Source: a virus (Duplodnaviria; Caudoviricetes). Taken from it: a stretch of DNA of 64,000 bases. The position numbers and the translations under genes were made by a program. The DNA is taken from the IMG/VR virus record IMGVR_UViG_3300025137_005045; one strand, 5' to 3'. A model generated the notes under the pieces. It saw only the letters and a list, made by a program, of their open reading frames with translations. It did no database searches and was not told where the DNA came from. This document shows, piece after piece, positions 3,132-44,145 of the stretch. The first letter of the stretch is position 1. The number at the start of each line of letters is the position of its first letter.

Positions 3132-3602
3132 ATGTCTGCGGCGAGCCCAACATTTAAGAAATTTAATACACTCGCTCAGCAGAGTCTAGCATCAATATCT
3201 AAAAATATAATCGTAAAAAAACAAAACACCTATGAAGTATTTGGAAAATTTCAAATACGTAAACAAGAAGATGGCTTTGTTGTTTTTCATAATGACAAAC
3301 AAATTAACACTTTTTATTCTTCACGTAACGCACTTAGCTATTGTATATTCGAAAAAAACTTTAAGTACAATGAATCTAAATTACTAGAAAGATTGGACAG
3401 CAGATTACAGTCAAAATTATTTGATATTGAAGTAGCAAAAAATACTTTAACCAATTCAAAAGATAGTTTTAAGAAATTTAACGCATTGGCTAGAGTTGAG
3501 TTATATATAGATGAAACAAAAATTATTAAAGAACAAATTAACGAAGTAGTCGAGAAGGCTAAATACTTCCAACAAAGGGAATTAGACAATGAAGTTAACT
3601 GA
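3132..3602 (+). CDS. Hypothetical phage protein
   Basis: ORF; ATG 3132 directly after upstream stop. Confidence 0.6.
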   Translation: MSAASPTFKKFNTLAQQSLASISKNIIVKKQNTYEVFGKFQIRKQEDGFVVFHNDKQINTFYSSRNALSYCIFEKNFKYNESKLLERLDSRLQSKLFDIEVAKNTLTNSKDSFKKFNALARVELYIDETKIIKEQINEVVEKAKYFQQRELDNEVN

Positions 3603-30214: not shown

Positions 30215-30281
30215 GTCTTAGCTTAATTTCAAAATAACCAAAATATATTTACAATATAGAGGTTTTCCTGTATAAATACAA

Positions 30282-30346
30282 TTATACGTTGCCGCAATAG
30301 GGACGTATAAATTTAACTTGCTTAATTTAAGGAGATTTATATCATG
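30282..30346 (+). promoter_or_regulatory. ROSE-like RNA thermometer in hsp20 5' UTR
   Basis: Upstream hairpin TTATACGT/ACGTATAA (30282-30310), then UUGCU (30318-22) pairing with SD AAGGAG (30329-34) leaving the hallmark bulged G. Confidence 0.7.
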
Positions 30347-30784
30347 ACTAGACTAACGACTCTAGACCTACAACCGTTTTACAGAAACTCTGTTGGAATT
30401 GACAGAATATTTGATTCAATGATTAACAGAATAGAACACTCAAGTTCAACAACTAATTACCCACCATATAATATTATAAAAATTGACGATGACAACTATA
30501 AGATTGAAGTTGCTGTTGCTGGTTTTACCAAAGGCGAGATTGATGTGCAAACACATGACGGCCAATTAATTATTACAGGTGAGAAACAAGATCAAGAACC
30601 TAATGGGGACAACTACTTACACAGTGGTATTAGTAACCGTAAGTTTTTGAGAACGTTTGAACTAAGTGACTATGTAGAAGTAGCTTCGGCGAAAGTTAAA
30701 GACGGTATTCTCACAGTTGATTTAGAACGACATGTTCCTGAATCAATGAAACCAAAGACCATTGATATAAATTATAAATCATAG
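30344..30784 (+). CDS. Small heat-shock protein Hsp20 (IbpA-like)
   Basis: NYPPYNIIK, IEVAVAGF, YLHSGISNRKFLRTF, DGILTVDL, PKTIDI. Confidence 0.95.
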   Translation: MTRLTTLDLQPFYRNSVGIDRIFDSMINRIEHSSSTTNYPPYNIIKIDDDNYKIEVAVAGFTKGEIDVQTHDGQLIITGEKQDQEPNGDNYLHSGISNRKFLRTFELSDYVEVASAKVKDGILTVDLERHVPESMKPKTIDINYKS

Positions 30785-32378: not shown

Positions 32379-32861
32379 ATGAAAATATTAGTATACATAC
32401 TATTGGCTGTAAGTTTAAACATTTTGTTTATTGCTGGCGGTGGATTTGTAGGTACAGTAGTAGCACAACCAATGAATGATTTTACGTTCAAAAGTCCAGC
32501 CTTTAACGGTAATGGATACTCCGCACACGTATTAACAATAGAAAATCAAGAATTTAGTCGTAAAAAAGCACTAGCTGAGAAGATCGAATCTGAATTAAAA
32601 GACGCTGAGCGTGAAGCACAAAGCACTAATATTGCTAAGTTTATGAGTAACTTAGAATCTAGAATCTATGCACAAATATCACAAGATTTAGCTACAGCAA
32701 TGTTTACAGACGATGAATCAAGTCCAACAAGTGGTACCTTAAGTTTTGAAGGTAATATTATTAACTGGAATAGGTCAGCAGATATTATCACCTTAGGGGT
32801 CACAGACATTGTTGGAACAACAACCACAATTGAGATACCATTAGGTGATTTTACATTTTAA
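32379..32861 (+). CDS. csgF: Curli assembly protein CsgF-like
   Basis: Signal peptide, FTFKSPAFNGNGY...ENQE, LESRIYAQISQ; directly before csgG. Confidence 0.8.
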   Translation: MKILVYILLAVSLNILFIAGGGFVGTVVAQPMNDFTFKSPAFNGNGYSAHVLTIENQEFSRKKALAEKIESELKDAEREAQSTNIAKFMSNLESRIYAQISQDLATAMFTDDESSPTSGTLSFEGNIINWNRSADIITLGVTDIVGTTTTIEIPLGDFTF

Positions 32862-34192
32862 TGAAAATAATAATTATTTTATTGATGACTCTAACAATTT
32901 TAGGTTGTGCAACAGGACAGGCTATAAAACAAACATATGATGTGCCAGTACTAATAGAGAAAAGCACTGCTAAAGAATTTGATACTATACCGCCTCCAGC
33001 ATTAGGTAAGATAGTTGTAGCAGTATACTCGTTTACTGACAAGACCGGACAAAGACGTCCAAGCAATACGCAGTCAAGTTTTAGTACAGCAGTTACACAA
33101 GGATCAGATGCTTTTTTACTTAAAGCACTTGGTGATGTAGGAAGAGGAAGATGGTTCACAGTGGTTGAACGTGGAGGACTGCAAAGTATAACGCAAGAAA
33201 GACAGATTATTAGACAAATGCGTGAAGCTTATGATGGAGTTGACGCAAAGAAATTAATGCCAATGAAGTTTGCTGGTATGTTGATAGAAGGTGGCATAAC
33301 AGGTTACGATACTTCAACAAGAAGTGGTGGTATGGGCATGCGTGTATTAGGCATAGGACCACAAACACAATTTAGTGAGGATATTATCACTGTAAGTTTG
33401 CGAGCAATAAGTGTTAACACCGGCGAAGTGATTGCCGCAGTTAATGTACAGAAAACAATATATTCTACAGCAGACAGTATAGCAGTATTAAAATTCTTCG
33501 ACAATGACACACAGATTTTTGAATTTGAATCGGGAATTACATTAAATGAGCCAGCAACATTGGCAGTTAAAACTACAGTCGAAGCGGCAGTGGTTGAATT
33601 AATTAAAGAAGGTGAGCGTAAGGATATATGGGACTACGGTGAATATCCTGAGACAGTAGAGATAGAGCCTACAATTGTTGAAGTGATAAAGGAAGTTGAG
33701 GTAGTAAGGGAAGTTGAGGTAATAAAGGAAGTTGAGGTAATAAAAGAAGTTGAAGTGATAAAAGAAGTTGAAGTGATAAAGGAAGTTGAGGTAATAAAAG
33801 AAGTGTATACTGAACTACCGCCACTACAGGAAGAAGAGTCTATGGCTACGGTACTCAGTGATAACATTGATAAAATAGTGGCACGTATGAAGGATGTAGA
33901 AGTGATCGACGAAACGGTGCTTGAAGAAATTGCACCACAAGACGAACTGACTGTAAGTGATTTACCGCCATTACAGGAAGAGGAGATTATAACTCCTGAT
34001 CTTTACTATGACAGTATAAAAGAAGAGTACACTGAACTACCGCCATTACAGGACGAGGAGTCTTTAATTTTAGAGCGTTACAATGATGATATCAGTGAAG
34101 ATATTGATAAAGTAGTGACACGTGTTCAGGATGAATTAGAAGAATATTATCAACGATGTTTAGAATATAATCATGAGGAGAACTGTCCGTAA
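32861..34192 (+). CDS. csgG: Curli secretion channel CsgG with acidic repetitive C-terminal extension
   Basis: Lipobox ILG-C; VAVYSFTDKTGQ...FSTAVTQG...WFTVVERGGLQSITQERQIIR; EGGITGYD. Confidence 0.92.
   Translation: MKIIIILLMTLTILGCATGQAIKQTYDVPVLIEKSTAKEFDTIPPPALGKIVVAVYSFTDKTGQRRPSNTQSSFSTAVTQGSDAFLLKALGDVGRGRWFTVVERGGLQSITQERQIIRQMREAYDGVDAKKLMPMKFAGMLIEGGITGYDTSTRSGGMGMRVLGIGPQTQFSEDIITVSLRAISVNTGEVIAAVNVQKTIYSTADSIAVLKFFDNDTQIFEFESGITLNEPATLAVKTTVEAAVVELIKEGERKDIWDYGEYPETVEIEPTIVEVIKEVEVVREVEVIKEVEVIKEVEVIKEVEVIKEVEVIKEVYTELPPLQEEESMATVLSDNIDKIVARMKDVEVIDETVLEEIAPQDELTVSDLPPLQEEEIITPDLYYDSIKEEYTELPPLQDEESLILERYNDDISEDIDKVVTRVQDELEEYYQRCLEYNHEENCP
33677..33802 (+). repeat. Seven tandem 18-bp coding repeats (VEVIKE)
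   Basis: GTTGA(A/G)GT(G/A)(A/G)TAA(A/G)(G/A)GAA x7, in frame in csgG. Confidence 0.95.
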
Positions 34193-34252
34193 GTGATTTT
34201 TCAGACTTACAGGATAAAGTAGTAAAAATGCTTAATAAGCAAGGAAGGAAAA

Positions 34253-35164
34253 ATGAAATTTATTAAACTATTTGGAATGATGTTTCTTACGTTGTCAATG
34301 GCACATGCCGCTGACAATAGCATTTATATTGACCAAATTGGTAGTAGTTCTACCATTAATATAAAACAAGATGGATCAGGTAACAAAGTGTTTGGAGTAG
34401 GCGATTCTGAAGGAACTCCGGCCAAGTTTACAGGTTCATCGCAAACTGTTGATATTAGACAAGTGGGAGGTAGTAACATATTAGGTATTGATATGAACAC
34501 CACAGTCGTATCTGGTGTTGGTGTTGACCTCAAATACTACATCACAGGTTCGAACTCTGTAGCAAGTATTGATATCAATGGAGACGGCTTAGGAACAGCG
34601 GCTAACAATACCATTGACATTCAACAAACTGGTAACCTGAATGATTTAATCTTTGACTTACTAGGTACAGGAAATACAATTAATGCGGCAATGACAGGTG
34701 GTACTTTAAACGATCTTACTTTTGATATTGATGCTGATAGTTTAACTGTAGATGTTGCTGTTAGTGGAGGTGGCTCTAACAAAATTACATTAACACTTGG
34801 TTCAAGCAGTTCAGACATAGATATTACAACTGTCGGTGCTAGTAATCAAGTTACTTCTACACAAACTGGTGTAGGTGTATTTGACTTAGATGTCATTGCA
34901 AATAGCAGTAGTAACACAATCACAACTGTACAACGAGACGTTGGTAATAGTGGAACAGATATTAATATTACGTCCGCTGGATCTACCAATACAGTATCAA
35001 CTAGCCAAATTGGTTCCTCGGGTTCTTCAGGACATGAAATTGAAATAGATATTGCAGGAGCAAGCAACAACATAACAGTTACCCAGTCTGGAGGATTAGA
35101 AAATGATTCCAATATTGATATAACTGGTAGTAGTAATACTTGGACAATCACTCAGGAAGAATAA
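34253..35164 (+). CDS. Secreted curlin-repeat protein (CsgA/CsgB-like)
   Basis: Signal peptide AHA-A; repeated N-x-I-x-I-x-Q-x-G units (NSIYIDQIGSSSTINIKQDGSGN, NNTIDIQQTGNLN, NNITVTQSGG). Confidence 0.8.
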   Translation: MKFIKLFGMMFLTLSMAHAADNSIYIDQIGSSSTINIKQDGSGNKVFGVGDSEGTPAKFTGSSQTVDIRQVGGSNILGIDMNTTVVSGVGVDLKYYITGSNSVASIDINGDGLGTAANNTIDIQQTGNLNDLIFDLLGTGNTINAAMTGGTLNDLTFDIDADSLTVDVAVSGGGSNKITLTLGSSSSDIDITTVGASNQVTSTQTGVGVFDLDVIANSSSNTITTVQRDVGNSGTDINITSAGSTNTVSTSQIGSSGSSGHEIEIDIAGASNNITVTQSGGLENDSNIDITGSSNTWTITQEE

Positions 35165-35165
35165 A

Positions 35166-35336
35166 ATGCTTGAAGACGATGATGTTGTTATCATACACAG
35201 CTATCTAGGAGACGAGTCGTTATCGTTTGCAGGTTGGCTTAAGGTTGATCATAATATAGACGTTAACACTTTATCTTTAAAAGATCATGTTAAGTATCGT
35301 AAACTATGGACAAAAACTTCCCGCTATACTGGATAA
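35166..35336 (+). CDS. Small hypothetical protein (56 aa, not in track)
   Basis: ATG two bases after curlin stop; MLEDDDVVIIHSYLGDESLSFAGWLK... Confidence 0.4.
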   Translation: MLEDDDVVIIHSYLGDESLSFAGWLKVDHNIDVNTLSLKDHVKYRKLWTKTSRYTG

Positions 35337-36424
35337 TATCAATGTTCCTTATAATGCCAACATTGGCATGGGGAGCCGTTGGAAAAATTTCTGCTCAACA
35401 GCATGATATAGGGAGCATTACTCGTAATAAAGAAGTACTCAAAGCTGATCTTAATGCAACGATAGAAATGCTTGATGCATTAAGAACTACTCAAGGCACT
35501 CTGGAAATAACTTTTAAAGATGACACAATAGTACAAATGACCGAAAGTGCCAGGATGACTGTTGATGATTTTGTTTATGATCCAAAGAACAAAGACGCAG
35601 GCAAATTAGCAATTAAAATAGCGGCTGGTACTGCCAGATATGCATCAGGACAAATTGCTAAAGACAAACCTCAAGCAGTCAAAATTAAAACTCCAACAGC
35701 AACAATATCAGTTCGTGGTACAGACTTTACAACAACAGTGGATGAGATTGGTGCTACTACAGTTATCTTATTACCTAGTTGTCCTTTTGGATGGGCATCT
35801 ATAGAAAGAGATTGTAAAACAGGTGCCATTGATGTTGAAAGCATGGGAGGTATTGTGTATATGGATAAACCATTTCAAGCCACTCGTGTTCCTAATCTAG
35901 ATTCTAAACCAACTCCTCCGGTTATTGTTGATTTGACAGAAGAAATGATTAAGAACATTCTTATTACTGGTACACCAAAAGAGATTGAAGCTGAAGAAGT
36001 TGGCCAGACTAATGTATCTGCATTAGATAATAATGCTCTTGATCAGGACCTGTTAGAAAATGAATTAGATAAAGCAGATGAACAATTGTATGTAAACAAA
36101 CTTAATCAAAACTTGTTAGAGAGAGACTTTCTGGTTAATGTGCTAGATATTTTAAATATGCAGTTAGCACTGGCACAAGAGAGAATACTATCTGTCTCAG
36201 AGAAGAATGAACTACTGCCTGATTTTATTCCTGACCAAGGTGTGACATTTACCACCGACGGTATAATAGTTGAATTGTGCATGGACACAACAGGTAGTGA
36301 CATAAGCTGTATTACAGTTCCTGAGAATCAAGAAACTACTATACGACAGATACAAGGTGCAGTTGATATAACCAACAGAGTAATTGATAATGGTACTACC
36401 ACCATTACCACGGAACAAAACTAA
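35306..36424 (+). CDS. FecR-domain periplasmic protein
   Basis: LEITFKDDTIVQMTESARMTVDDFVYDP...GTARYASG...IKTPTATISVRGTDF. Confidence 0.88.
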   Translation: MDKNFPLYWIISMFLIMPTLAWGAVGKISAQQHDIGSITRNKEVLKADLNATIEMLDALRTTQGTLEITFKDDTIVQMTESARMTVDDFVYDPKNKDAGKLAIKIAAGTARYASGQIAKDKPQAVKIKTPTATISVRGTDFTTTVDEIGATTVILLPSCPFGWASIERDCKTGAIDVESMGGIVYMDKPFQATRVPNLDSKPTPPVIVDLTEEMIKNILITGTPKEIEAEEVGQTNVSALDNNALDQDLLENELDKADEQLYVNKLNQNLLERDFLVNVLDILNMQLALAQERILSVSEKNELLPDFIPDQGVTFTTDGIIVELCMDTTGSDISCITVPENQETTIRQIQGAVDITNRVIDNGTTTITTEQN

Positions 36425-37773
36425 TGATTAGAATATTCACACTTGTATTTTTGTTGTTAATTATATCGAATTTTTTAACAACAAAAGCAGAGGCCGCAAC
36501 CGGACTAACTTATACAACTTTAGCTTGTGGGACCTCCTGGCCCTGCTCATTGACCGGTTCCGTTTTATCTACGGGAACTATTTCCACTGGAGACGTGAAT
36601 TTAAATTGGGGCAGTGGAGAAGTATTAGACTCTGGTAGAAGTGATTATGTTGTTGTAAAACTAGAAGGCTATTTTGTAATGCCAGGAACAGCAGGAACAA
36701 GTTATTCAGTAGAATTTACAAACCAAGATGATGATGGGTCAAGAACTATAATTGGTGGAACAACAGTCATTGATGATTGGTCTGGACTACACTCACCAGC
36801 AGACAGAAGTGGTACTATTACCTTAGTTGGTGGAACAACCTATTCATATCTGAGATATATGTCAGAATGGACTGGTGGTGCTGTATTAAGACAATTTTGG
36901 AAAATAGGTTCTGGCTCTAGAACTTATATGAATTTTGCAGACGACTTTACCACAACATCAAGTCCTGTAACATCAACAACCACCGGTACAAGTAGTGGTA
37001 TAAGTTCTAGTCAAGCAACTACAGTATCAACAGCAAGAACCAGAGCAACAGCGGCAAGTGCAGGTACTAACCCAGATAATTCTGTTTATATAGATCAAGC
37101 TGGTTCCAGTAATACTGTAGTGATTCTACAAGATGGTTCATCAGGTAATCATATACGAGGCATAGGAGTTGACAATGCATCTTTAGTAGGTGACTCCAAT
37201 GACATTGAGATTAAACAGGGTGCTGGTACATCAGGTGATGGAGTTAATTTAATTGAATTAATGGTTGATGGTGATACCAATGATCTAAAACTATATCAAG
37301 ATAGATACGACGATGGAACACCAGATGCAGACCCATCCGGTGATCATATCATTAAGCTGGATGTTGATGGTAATTTAAATGATATTGAAGTAATTCAACG
37401 AGCAAATGGTACAGTTGGTCATTTTGCTGAAATAGATATAACTGGCAATTCTAGTAATTTTGATATTCTACAAAAAGGACAATCCGAAAAACAATTGTTT
37501 ATAGATGTAACTGGTAATAGCAATATAATAGATGTTACACAACGAGACAGCTCATCTAAATTTGCGGATATAAAATTAATTGGAAATGGTCATGATGTGA
37601 CTGTACTACAAAAAGGAACAGGTGCTCATAACGCAACAATTGATTTAACTTTTGGTTCAGGAGCAAGCACTGTGGATTTAACACAACAAGGTAGTTCAAA
37701 TCAATCATATTCTCTAGAACAAATTTGTTACGATGTATCCGGGTGTTCAACTACAGTAACCCAAGGATATTAA
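36424..37773 (+). CDS. Secreted PA14 domain + Ser/Thr linker + curlin-repeat protein
   Basis: Signal peptide; VNLNWGSG...VKLEGYF...DDDGSR...VIDDW...EWTGGAVLRQFW (PA14); C-terminal Q-x-G-x-x-N repeats. Confidence 0.8.
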   Translation: MIRIFTLVFLLLIISNFLTTKAEAATGLTYTTLACGTSWPCSLTGSVLSTGTISTGDVNLNWGSGEVLDSGRSDYVVVKLEGYFVMPGTAGTSYSVEFTNQDDDGSRTIIGGTTVIDDWSGLHSPADRSGTITLVGGTTYSYLRYMSEWTGGAVLRQFWKIGSGSRTYMNFADDFTTTSSPVTSTTTGTSSGISSSQATTVSTARTRATAASAGTNPDNSVYIDQAGSSNTVVILQDGSSGNHIRGIGVDNASLVGDSNDIEIKQGAGTSGDGVNLIELMVDGDTNDLKLYQDRYDDGTPDADPSGDHIIKLDVDGNLNDIEVIQRANGTVGHFAEIDITGNSSNFDILQKGQSEKQLFIDVTGNSNIIDVTQRDSSSKFADIKLIGNGHDVTVLQKGTGAHNATIDLTFGSGASTVDLTQQGSSNQSYSLEQICYDVSGCSTTVTQGY

Positions 37774-42039: not shown

Positions 42040-42318
42040 ATGAAAACATTCAAATACTATTTCAACAAAACTATCATCACACTTTGTATTCTCTTCTTTT
42101 TCGTAATATGGTATCAAGTACTTTCTAAAATAATATGTAATTCATTTTGTGAAGTTGAGCAAGAAGTGCAAGGAGTTGTTATAGCATATGAGGATATGAC
42201 TCCTGAACAACGTCGAGCAGAATTTGAAAAACTAAAAGCACAAAGGACAGCAGAAAATGAAAAAAATAGTAGTATTACTAACACTACTGGCAGTGTCAAC
42301 ATTAGCTCTAGCAGATAA
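42040..42318 (+). CDS. Single-TM hypothetical protein
   Basis: N-terminal TM, helical C-terminus; overlaps porin start. Confidence 0.45.
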   Translation: MKTFKYYFNKTIITLCILFFFVIWYQVLSKIICNSFCEVEQEVQGVVIAYEDMTPEQRRAEFEKLKAQRTAENEKNSSITNTTGSVNISSSR

Positions 42319-42820
42319 ACCAGGATACTATTCAGCTATTAAGTTTAGTATAGAAGAAAGTAATACTGGAGGAAGTGACAGTACTAAATGGGCAGTCAAA
42401 TATGGTAAGCACATTAACAAACATCTTGATGCTGAATTATATACAAGAACAAAAGACAAAGACTCTGGTAGTAATGATACAAGAGTAGAAGCCGCAGTGA
42501 TTGGCAAGTACAAACTAACAGATGATTGGTCAACTAGTCTTAGAGTTGGTGCTGGTAACAAATATACACGAACTGATGACTTTGGTTATTGGACAGTTAC
42601 ACCAGCAGTAAAATATAAAATTACTGACAAGCTAAGTGCTAAACTTGGATATAGATTTCGTGACGCATTTGAAACAGAAAGACAACAGAATGACCAAACA
42701 ATTAAGTTAGGCATTGGCTACAAGTTAACCAGTGATGTATCTCTAGGTGCTGGCTATGACTGGAAACGTGGTGACAGTGATGCTGACGGTTTTGGAGTTG
42801 GTTTTAAATTCGAATTTTAA
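42257..42820 (+). CDS. Small outer-membrane beta-barrel (KdgM/porin-like)
   Basis: Signal peptide ALA-D; alternating aromatic beta-strands; ends GFKFEF. Confidence 0.75.
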   Translation: MKKIVVLLTLLAVSTLALADKPGYYSAIKFSIEESNTGGSDSTKWAVKYGKHINKHLDAELYTRTKDKDSGSNDTRVEAAVIGKYKLTDDWSTSLRVGAGNKYTRTDDFGYWTVTPAVKYKITDKLSAKLGYRFRDAFETERQQNDQTIKLGIGYKLTSDVSLGAGYDWKRGDSDADGFGVGFKFEF

Positions 42821-42865
42821 TAATATTGTATAATGGTAGGTGTTGAGTACTAAATAATATTACAA

Positions 42866-42909
42866 CGTTCATCCCACTGGGACGGAAGTAGGCATAAGCT
42901 GAAGGAACG
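42866..42909 (+). ncRNA. Glutamine riboswitch (glnA RNA motif)
   Basis: P1 CGTTC(42866-70)/GAACG(42905-09), P2 TCCC-act-GGGA, E-loop GACGGAAGTAGG...GAAGGAACG, short P3. Confidence 0.85.
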
Positions 42910-42934
42910 CTTCTTGTTAAAAGGAGGTAGCTTT

Positions 42935-43129
42935 ATGTATGCTAAAGAAAATAATACATCCACCATATTAAAAATTGCAACATTGTTAGATCTTGAAGTA
43001 AAAGAAGTAACTAAATTTCTTGAACTAATGCTAGACGGATACAACTTCACAGATGCCCTTAACGGTTGTCATTTGACCAGAGAGGACTGTGAACTAGTAT
43101 TAGCAGAACTTAAGAAAAGAAAAAAATAA
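42935..43129 (+). CDS. 64 aa protein downstream of the riboswitch
   Basis: Strong SD AAGGAGGT at 42921-28, ATG 42935; helical with basic tail. Confidence 0.7.
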   Translation: MYAKENNTSTILKIATLLDLEVKEVTKFLELMLDGYNFTDALNGCHLTREDCELVLAELKKRKK

Positions 43130-43144
43130 TATGGTACAACTTAG

Positions 43145-43170
43145 AAAAGCACTTTTAGGAGTGCTTTTTT
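43145..43170 (+). terminator. Rho-independent terminator
   Basis: AAAAGCACT-tttagg-AGTGCTTTT. Confidence 0.85.
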
Positions 43171-43242
43171 ATTGTCTATAATAAATACCTTTAAGCACAA
43201 GACCAAAAGTCTTATTTTACTAATTTTTCAAAAAGGTAATAT

Positions 43243-43353
43243 ATGGCCAATAAGAATTGCTACTGGAGACCAGAGACAGATGATGATATGGAATGGTTAA
43301 ACAGCCTGGCGAAACCCATAAAACCCATAAAACCCACTGATCAAAAGAAGTAG
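43243..43353 (+). CDS. Small orphan peptide (36 aa, not in track)
   Basis: Late box 43182, AAGG SD; MANKNCYWRPETDDDMEWLNSLAKPIKPIKPTDQKK. Confidence 0.4.
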   Translation: MANKNCYWRPETDDDMEWLNSLAKPIKPIKPTDQKK

Positions 43354-43379
43354 ACATATCTAACTATAGACTATATAAT
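43351..43379 (+). promoter_or_regulatory. sigma70-type promoter (near-leaderless)
   Basis: TAGACA-17 nt-TATAAT; ATG follows 7 nt after the -10 box. Confidence 0.55.
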
Positions 43380-43386
43380 ATAACTT

Positions 43387-44145
43387 ATGATAGTCATAAC
43401 AGGTTACGGTTACGTAGGAAAAGCCATCGAATCGGCACTAATTCCACACGTTGATATAGCTATTGTTGATCCAATGATCAACGATAAACGTGTGTCTGAC
43501 TTTGATGCTGAAGCAGTAATCGTAGCTGTATCAACACCCAACACACTAGACGGTAGTTGTAACATGCAAAACGTATTTGATGTATTGGCAGATGTACCCG
43601 AAGATGTTCCTGTACTAATTAAATCAACTATATCAATAGAAGGATGGAACGAACTGACTGATAAGTATCCTGATCATAAGATTACATTTAGTCCAGAGTT
43701 TCTAAGAGCTAACACTGCAATCGAAGACTTTCACAATCAGGACTATGTATTTTTAAGTGGTGATAATCATAAGTATTGGGAAAAACTATTCTTAGATACT
43801 ATTAAGAAACCAAGTCAGATTTATTCAGCTGAAGAACTTATATTAGCTAAACTATTTCGGAACAGTTTTCTAGCAACCAAAGTTACATTCTTTAATCAGG
43901 TCAATGACTTATGTCAACGATTAGAGTTAGACTACGAGAAAGTCAGAAAGATTATCACAGATGATCAGCGTATAGGTACTGGCCATTCACAAGTTACAGA
44001 AGAACGTGGATATGGTGGACACTGCTTACCTAAGGATACAGAAGCACTATTAAAAAGTGCATTGCAACATGGATGTAGTATGAGCTTAATTCAAGAAGCA
44101 ATTCGATATAATAAACATATTAAGAAAAAAACTAATAAATATTGA
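43387..44145 (+). CDS. UDP-glucose/GDP-mannose dehydrogenase family, short form
   Basis: ITGYGYVG, IKST, FSPEFLR, GYGGHCLPKD; lacks C-terminal domain. Confidence 0.85.
   Translation: MIVITGYGYVGKAIESALIPHVDIAIVDPMINDKRVSDFDAEAVIVAVSTPNTLDGSCNMQNVFDVLADVPEDVPVLIKSTISIEGWNELTDKYPDHKITFSPEFLRANTAIEDFHNQDYVFLSGDNHKYWEKLFLDTIKKPSQIYSAEELILAKLFRNSFLATKVTFFNQVNDLCQRLELDYEKVRKIITDDQRIGTGHSQVTEERGYGGHCLPKDTEALLKSALQHGCSMSLIQEAIRYNKHIKKKTNKY

Follow-up and report, generated by a model that had tools for sequence, protein, structure and literature searches.

Why would a phage place an RNA sensor of glutamine, the cell's internal read-out of nitrogen supply, ahead of a gene of only 64 codons? The question is raised by a locus within a 64,000-nucleotide stretch of DNA from a virus classified in Duplodnaviria, Caudoviricetes (IMG/VR virus record IMGVR_UViG_3300025137_005045). 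The whole of this stretch is referred to as the window, and all features of the locus lie on its plus (+) strand. A preliminary description had proposed that a glutamine riboswitch controls an orphan phage protein at this site. Our analysis indicates that positions 42850-43171 constitute a self-contained phage unit, which comprises a late-type promoter box, a riboswitch that probably turns expression on, an anti-Shine-Dalgarno sequence and its Shine-Dalgarno (SD) partner, a 64-codon gene with homologues in a host lineage, and a terminator. To this reading we assign a probability of about 0.72.

The identity of the RNA follows from a search of the whole window against Rfam 15 by using cmscan with gathering thresholds. 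A match to RF01739 (Glutamine riboswitch, glnA leader) is located at 42864-42913 and scores 60.1 bits, for a gathering score of 35 and an E value of 8.7e-11. The alignment spans the full model (1-53), and the strongly conserved consensus positions are all matched. Such a match is far beyond chance, and the element is, by its fit to the model, a type-1 glutamine riboswitch aptamer (glnA RNA motif); the Infernal search thus bears out the glnA motif recognized in the preliminary description. The aptamer is formed by stems P1 (42866-70/42905-09), P2 (42872-75/42879-82), which is capped by a 3-nucleotide loop, and P3 (42891-93/42898-900). All 12 base pairs of the three stems are standard, one of them being a G-U pair. 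The junction nucleotides ACGGAAGUA and GAAGGAACG, as well as the C after P1, match the consensus. P2 is shorter than that of the RF01739 consensus, and the posterior probabilities reported by cmscan are lower in this stem. The aptamer is on the coding strand, in the 5' untranslated region (UTR), and its 3' end is 7 nucleotides ahead of the SD. The other elements of the preliminary description, which are a CTTCTT/AAGGAG pair, an ATG start codon and a terminator, are also present where that description placed them.

Comparison of related loci provides a view of how this RNA has been maintained. The 64-amino acid (aa) protein has 23 close homologues, with 73-92% identity, and each phage-type relative with enough upstream sequence carries an RF01739 match of 57.8-63.1 bits at the same position. 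The riboswitch-bearing loci include the deepest-branching phage copy (L173), the sequence of which was inspected directly. Mean pairwise identities were calculated for 14 distinct full-length related phage units. The aptamer is 97.6% identical, with 4 of 45 columns variable, and both the anti-SD and the SD are 100% identical; the junction nucleotides and the C after P1 are invariant. The corresponding values are 93.7% for the TAAATA portion of the promoter box, 86% for the coding region, 74% for the promoter-proximal spacer, and 70% for each of the hairpin loop and the spacer between the SD and the ATG. Within the coding region, first, second and third codon positions vary in 27, 10 and 40 of the 64 codons, which is a coding signature. 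The sole stem change among relatives converts the G-U pair in P3 to A-U, and so pairing is kept. By these identities, the aptamer, anti-SD and SD are far more constrained than their flanks, which strongly indicates that the aptamer and its platform are under selection.

How might the aptamer act on the gene? The anti-SD, CUUCUU (42910-42915), and the SD, AAGGAGG (42921-42927), which lies 7 nucleotides ahead of the start codon, are separated by a short loop. In the unconstrained minimum-free-energy (MFE) fold, CUUCUU pairs with AAGGAG (42921-26), as had been predicted for these segments, and both are the invariant segments mentioned above. A conserved anti-SD/SD hairpin in the 5' UTR of the 64-aa open reading frame (ORF) is compatible with the earlier idea of translational control. 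A terminator scan of the interval from the aptamer to the ORF found no terminator-like hairpin.

The first base of the anti-SD, C42910, is also the conserved C that follows P1. According to the account of Ren et al. 2015 given in PMC6212724, this C takes part, in the solved aptamer, in a long-range G-C pair that depends on the ligand. In the gifB leader, that C and the bases following it keep the ribosome-binding site covered as long as glutamine is not bound (Klahn et al. 2018, PMC6212724), and in-line probing of that leader yields a KD for glutamine in the millimolar range. Both characterized types of glutamine riboswitch are ON switches, in which expression rises upon an ammonium or glutamine upshift. 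In the present family, the MFE folds of all nine distinct leaders contain the CUUCUU/AAGGAG hairpin, and bases of the P3 region are paired with the start-codon region. ViennaRNA assigns the leader in the window an energy of -23.4 kcal/mol for the MFE fold, -16.8 kcal/mol when the aptamer is enforced and -14.0 kcal/mol when C42910 is also kept unpaired. The anti-SD hairpin contributes -6.2 kcal/mol if two nucleotides of the P1 3' arm are drawn into it, -3.7 kcal/mol with the C42910-G42926 pair and -1.1 kcal/mol without this pair. Because the extended anti-SD helix uses two P1 nucleotides and the anti-SD begins with the C that the aptamer needs, the two folds compete. From the fold energies, the role of C42910 and the ON behavior of both characterized types, we infer that the RNA is a translational ON switch at high glutamine, by analogy with cyanobacterial gifB. 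Such behavior agrees with the model of an ON switch and with the reporter data published for gifB of Synechocystis (PMC6212724).

In the absence of glutamine, the 3' half of the aptamer and its CUUCUU tail would pair with the SD and the start-codon region. Binding of glutamine would close P1 and pull C42910 into the long-range G-C pair of the aptamer, and a marginal helix of 5 base pairs alone would remain over the SD, which might permit ribosomes to load. Since the switch is presumably ON at high glutamine, the protein would be made solely when host glutamine is high, as in a nitrogen-replete host, and probably late in infection.

The gene (42935-43129, stop codon included) opens with the ATG at 42935 that had been proposed as its start. 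The homologues with 73-92% identity begin at the same Met, and homologues of the protein all start with MY(T/A). The expected intrinsic terminator is found at 43142-43171 and consists of a 13-pair stem, a loop of 4 nucleotides and a run of T residues; a terminator is also located 3' of the gene in the deepest-branching phage copy. In three studies, metatranscriptomic libraries yielded contigs that cover both the riboswitch and the gene of relatives that are 90-95% identical. Two such contigs, from two studies, have ends that correspond to 43169 and 43171, within the terminator, which is a weak hint that transcripts stop there.

Two boxes upstream of the aptamer might drive transcription. The first is CTAAATA (42850-42856), which resembles a T4-type late promoter and lies 9 nucleotides upstream of P1. 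The late box claimed by the preliminary description is therefore present, and its TAAATA is conserved well beyond the adjoining spacer, but it matches the T4 late consensus, TATAAATA, at only 6 of 8 positions. In T4-type late promoters, the box lies about 6-7 nucleotides upstream of the transcript start. A transcript from the present box would begin at about the first aptamer nucleotide; such late expression is plausible. Hexamers of A4T2 composition were compared for their intergenic occurrence across the window. TAAATA has the highest intergenic count and share of them, with 23 of 44 copies between genes (5 of 21 for its reverse complement); on the plus strand, the 23 intergenic and 21 intragenic copies amount to 2.63 versus 0.38 per kb. 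The intergenic copies are usually 7-85 nucleotides upstream of ORFs, and those at 3559 and 10327 are 30-34 nucleotides ahead of a virion-structural gene and a tail-fibre-like gene, respectively. This intergenic and strand bias suggests that late promoters of the phage follow a relaxed NTAAATA consensus. Over the entire window, no excess of exact CTAAATA, TATAAATA or TATAATGG is seen. The second box is TATAAT (42829-42834; TGTATAATGG), a hexamer like the -10 element of sigma-70 promoters and a possible early or host-type promoter. It is kept as TAT(A/T)ATGG in related units, and a box of this type also precedes the riboswitch-less host copies of the gene that are described below. A promoter scan found no acceptable -35 partner for the hexamer at 42829-34.

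The encoded protein (P0001) has no significant match in Pfam, PHROGs, NCBIfam, a PDB profile search or an ESM feature search. An exhaustive profile search of 1.84 billion representatives yielded only eight clusters at E <= 1e-10, and the family is therefore without detectable distant relatives. DUF4278, the family of IF17, is matched neither by this protein nor by any of 17 members of the P0001 family at E values up to 10. As a positive control, YRG-type ORFs located behind other viral aptamers do match DUF4278. Acidic and basic residues are about equal in number, and the C-terminal tail is basic. The preliminary description had called the protein helical, and an AlphaFold2 model based on 17 sequences agrees, predicting four helices with a mean predicted local distance difference test (pLDDT) score of 83.6.

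When this model is compared with 48,161 PDB representatives by using VIA-align, residues 1-69 of Tex (3bzc_A) rank first, with a root-mean-square deviation of 1.4 Å over 58 residues and a Z score of 8.5, a value in the range common for small helical models. Next, with Z scores of 5-6, come the helix-turn-helix (HtH) domain of Spt6, TFE-alpha and sigma region 4. A shape search of the ESM Atlas, which is independent of VIA-align, retrieves Tex_N clusters with template-modeling (TM) scores of 0.76-0.81, and Foldseek searches of PDB and BFVD return nothing at E <= 0.001. The protein is predicted from its model to be a compact four-helix, HtH-like domain and, with low confidence, might be a small regulator associated with nucleic acids or RNA polymerase. 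Its likeness to the N-terminal HtH region of Tex and Spt6 (Tex_N, PDB 3bzc) consists of the four-helix arrangement, which superposes on Tex 1-69. Unlike Tex, it lacks any Tex_N sequence match at E values up to 10, and it stands alone, without YqgF, HhH or S1 domains. An analogue of gp33, the late-transcription coactivator, was considered and rejected, as a profile comparison with the gp33-like protein of Methylophilales phage Melnitz was negative. The proposal that the protein regulates lysis timing, PII or glutamine synthetase (GS) is not supported by the present results: the DUF4278/IF17 signal is absent and no nitrogen genes are beside the host copy.

Where did the gene come from? The protein is not the orphan that it was taken to be. 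Divergent homologues with 57-68% identity, which have AT-rich leaders and no riboswitch, are chromosomal genes of streamlined marine Methylophilaceae of the OM43 type. Coastal oceans harbor OM43 methylotrophs in abundance. When species-representative genomes were scanned, homologues were detected in six Methylophilaceae genomes (single-cell genomes and metagenome-assembled genomes), one of them on a 1.0-Mb contig. Its neighbors there are ordinary chromosomal genes, namely those for a CMAS-type methyltransferase, DoxX, a VTT/DedA protein and a DCC1-like oxidoreductase, as well as photolyase-related genes, and no nitrogen genes are beside it. The neighbors of the host copy vary between host subclades. 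When the family was sampled more broadly, 8 of 201 Methylophilaceae genomes carried a homologue, and all of these genomes are 1.1-1.4 Mb, that is, of the OM43 type. RF01739 is found in none of 3 and none of 151 sampled Methylophilaceae genomes, and the host is without the riboswitch also according to Buchholz et al. 2022 (PMC9004378).

In a maximum-likelihood tree, one branch with 100/99 support parts the riboswitch-bearing phage copies from the riboswitch-less host copies, and the deepest phage copy retains host-like C-terminal residues. On the evidence of these sequences, a gene of the host lineage appears to have been joined, in the phage lineage, to a nitrogen-gated cassette of phage type, and OM43-type Methylophilaceae are the likely hosts. 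OM43 has been said to lack glnA (PMC9004378), which is contradicted by the presence of glutamine synthetase (PF00120) in all five OM43-type genomes searched (G001, G114, G141, G149 and G178). PII is likewise encoded in all five, and so glutamine can report nitrogen status in hosts of this type.

The layout of the unit is not peculiar to this phage. A pattern scan of IMG/VR revealed at least 120 viral contigs with a type-1 glutamine aptamer; behind it, 116 of the 120 loci listed have an SD and a small ORF (17-87 aa). Many of the listed examples have an anti-SD right after the post-P1 C, such as CACCU...GGGUG. Among the 97 listed examples with usable upstream sequence, TAAATA occurs within 40 nucleotides upstream in 63 and is 5-8 nucleotides before P1 in 50. 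Some arrangements are in tandem, in that a further aptamer 3' arm precedes 22 of the listed aptamers. At least five large and mutually unrelated ORF families lie behind these aptamers, with 37, 24, 20, 13 and 8 members among the listed loci. Only the YRG group of these families matches DUF4278 and is thus IF17-like, and many of the viral ORFs encode peptides rich in lysine and arginine. The survey therefore indicates that the present unit has the standard phage layout with a different cargo.

A separate case of a box next to an aptamer comes from RNA runs of two seawater metatranscriptome studies (X17 and X20). Their contigs match the window only at 42878-42910 and represent a different, well-covered glutamine aptamer. 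This aptamer has TATAAAT directly ahead of P1 (CGTTCAACCC...), which is another late-type box abutting an aptamer.

Previous work has documented relatives of this arrangement. Since 2010, glnA RNAs have been known to lie ahead of nitrogen genes and of short ORFs, the latter case being that of the glnA and Downstream-peptide RNAs of marine cyanobacteria and metagenomes (Weinberg et al. 2010, PMC2864571). Glutamine riboswitches of phages are likewise already published (Weinberg et al. 2010; Buchholz et al. 2022); they have been reported in cyanophages and, by PMC9004378, in pelagimyophages and Melnitz. The unit resembles the RNAs of Weinberg et al. in that a glutamine-type aptamer lies ahead of a short ORF (17-100 aa) outside any known family. 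It differs from these and from the other viral ORFs in its cargo, which has acidic and basic residues in balance, a predicted fold, and homologues on the chromosomes of a host lineage that is not cyanobacterial. The unit shares with the gifB (IF17) leader of Synechocystis (PMC6212724) the aptamer family, its position in the 5' UTR directly ahead of an SD, and a conserved post-P1 C that opens a short anti-SD segment, which is proposed to be freed on glutamine binding. In contrast to gifB, its cargo is not DUF4278/IF17, the element is phage-borne and missing from all 151 genomes sampled from the likely host family, P2 is shorter, and a late-type promoter box is found in place of an NtcA-regulated promoter.

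Melnitz is also an OM43 phage, and its aptamer is 85% identical to the present one over 46 nucleotides. Both phages carry curli CsgGF genes (PMC9004378 for Melnitz). However, Melnitz belongs to Kyanoviridae and has a size of 141 kb, while relatives of the present window reach 312-315 kb. The Melnitz riboswitch was assigned to ssrA by Buchholz et al. 2022 (PMC9004378). Within MZ577097.1 (L041:2501-2670), the annotated ssrA includes the aptamer as its 3' end, and directly behind the aptamer are a GGGGAGAG SD and an unannotated 32-codon ORF (2572-2670). The 32-codon ORF belongs to the largest ORF family behind the viral glutamine aptamers listed, and the ssrA assignment therefore looks doubtful. 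The ORF is unrelated to the 64-aa protein, with no tblastn match between them.

Several observations weigh against the interpretation of 42850-43171 as a late, glutamine-activated unit with a captured gene. Since the aptamer is nearly invariant, covariation evidence is thin. The late box departs from the T4 consensus at two of its eight positions, and its 9-nucleotide spacing is at the edge of the 5-8 nucleotides found elsewhere. When the aptamer is enforced in silico, the SD is still mostly paired, and the ON direction consequently depends on the gifB analogy and the marginal helix energy. ViennaRNA favors the alternative fold by 6-9 kcal/mol, which tertiary contacts and the ligand must offset. 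The Tex_N resemblance, at a Z score usual for small helical models, comes without support from a sequence family. The RNA-library contigs may derive from contaminating DNA. Finally, the tree is unrooted and does not fix the direction of transfer, and capture of the gene from host to phage is therefore likely rather than proven.

The persistence of the CUUCUU/AAGGAG hairpin as a formable structure when the aptamer is enforced, with the SD mostly paired, raises the question of whether the same riboswitch follows another logic, in which glutamine represses expression (OFF) or acts on transcription or mRNA stability. Such a logic is improbable, as both characterized types are ON switches, the anti-SD begins with a C that the bound aptamer needs, the extended helix takes two P1 nucleotides, and the region from the aptamer to the ORF has no terminator-like hairpin. 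A more radical proposal is that the aptamer does not gate the ORF and is a conserved sequence relic or has some other function, for instance in RNA stability or the sensing of another ligand. In favor of this idea is the short P2, with its 3-nucleotide loop and lower posterior probabilities. Against it, the conserved junction nucleotides are all retained, no segments of the unit are better conserved than the aptamer, anti-SD and SD, and at least 120 viral contigs have small ORFs behind the same architecture; we regard it as highly improbable.

The remaining rival concerns the cargo. Perhaps the 64-aa protein is a functional analogue of IF7/IF17, or a small protein that binds PII, and the unit constitutes a nitrogen feedback loop. 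The cyanobacterial riboswitch mainly controls the GS inhibitor IF17, OM43-type genomes that bear a homologue encode GS and PII in 5 of 5 cases each, and the protein combines small size with a basic C-terminal tail. However, no DUF4278 or other match emerges even at an E value of 10, the model is a folded four-helix, HtH-like domain, and the host copy has no riboswitch and is away from nitrogen genes, with neighbors that vary between host subclades. Such a role is accordingly unlikely for the protein. The preferred interpretation is still a unit that is switched on by glutamine and carries a host-lineage gene.

A broader scenario is possible, although we give it a little less than an even chance. 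Marine T4-like and jumbo phages might share a portable, nitrogen-gated late cassette, composed of TAAATA, the aptamer and the anti-SD/SD pair, into which cargos encoding different small proteins have repeatedly been swapped. In the present phage, the cargo would be an OM43-lineage gene for a small HtH-like regulator that is expressed only in glutamine-rich cells through a sensor that is absent from the host, and the switch of Melnitz would gate the 32-codon gene, not ssrA. The riboswitch itself is ordinary and already known in phages. What is new is the cargo and its OM43 host-lineage origin, the occurrence of the sensor in a jumbo phage whose host family lacks it, and the picture of a cassette formed by a late box, an aptamer and a small ORF. 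If the late gene is gated on host glutamine, the phage takes an infection decision from the nutrient status of its host through an RNA sensor that the host family does not have. The cargo, found only in OM43-type bacteria and their phage, points to an unstudied host factor that was worth copying and re-regulating. The survey also suggests that most phage glutamine riboswitches control small and largely unannotated ORFs, which are candidate nitrogen-responsive phage effectors.

The genomic setting is that of a phage, as the preliminary description had assumed. The window has about 35% G+C, and nearly all of its ORFs are on one strand. Matches to PHROGs include both subunits of ribonucleotide reductase, an ATP-dependent DNA ligase, tail-fibre- or spike-like and virion-structural proteins, and an endonuclease. 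Host-like genes are nearby, and these encode AhcY, two outer-membrane barrels (one of which is a TorF/Gcw_chp porin), a UDP-glucose-dehydrogenase-like protein, an NqrF-like reductase, a CHASE2 cyclase, curli CsgF and CsgG, ClpX, ClpS and Hsp20. Searches of the cultured-phage collection gave no DNA match to 42600-43400 and no tblastn match to the 64-aa protein. Only two loci in IMG/VR encode the protein, and identical or near-identical copies are present on contigs from marine metagenomes, which share the gene order and are as long as 312-315 kb. Because phage genes are present, no cultured phage is close, and the colinear relatives reach 312-315 kb, the source is taken to be an uncultured marine jumbo phage.

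Directly upstream of the unit is the gene for a 187-aa outer-membrane beta-barrel protein (42257-42820; Pfam OMP_b-brl, DUF2490). In every phage-type relative whose flank is long enough, this barrel gene is likewise found ahead of the riboswitch. One OM43-type genome encodes a 40%-identical homologue, on a different contig from its copy of the small gene. As there is no terminator between the barrel gene and the riboswitch, read-through transcripts are possible. The RNA-library contigs do not extend over the barrel gene, a gap that carries no weight as to separate transcription. A long-read study reported RF01739 in SAR86 (PMC12379486), where a pairing of a porin with the riboswitch echoes the present layout; it may reflect phage-derived DNA.

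Two other parts of the window are of separate interest. Positions 32379-37773 encode CsgF, CsgG, a FecR-domain protein and a curlin-repeat/PA14 protein, which make up a curli-type module; pelagimyophages and Melnitz have similar ones. At 30283-30349 lies a match to the ROSE_3 RNA thermometer (43.6 bits; cut-off, 43) that extends over the start codon of the gene for a 146-aa Hsp20 (30344-30784). A TATAAATA box is located at 30271, a ClpX-like gene is upstream and ClpS is downstream. The arrangement looks like a phage-borne heat-shock thermometer ahead of a small heat-shock protein.

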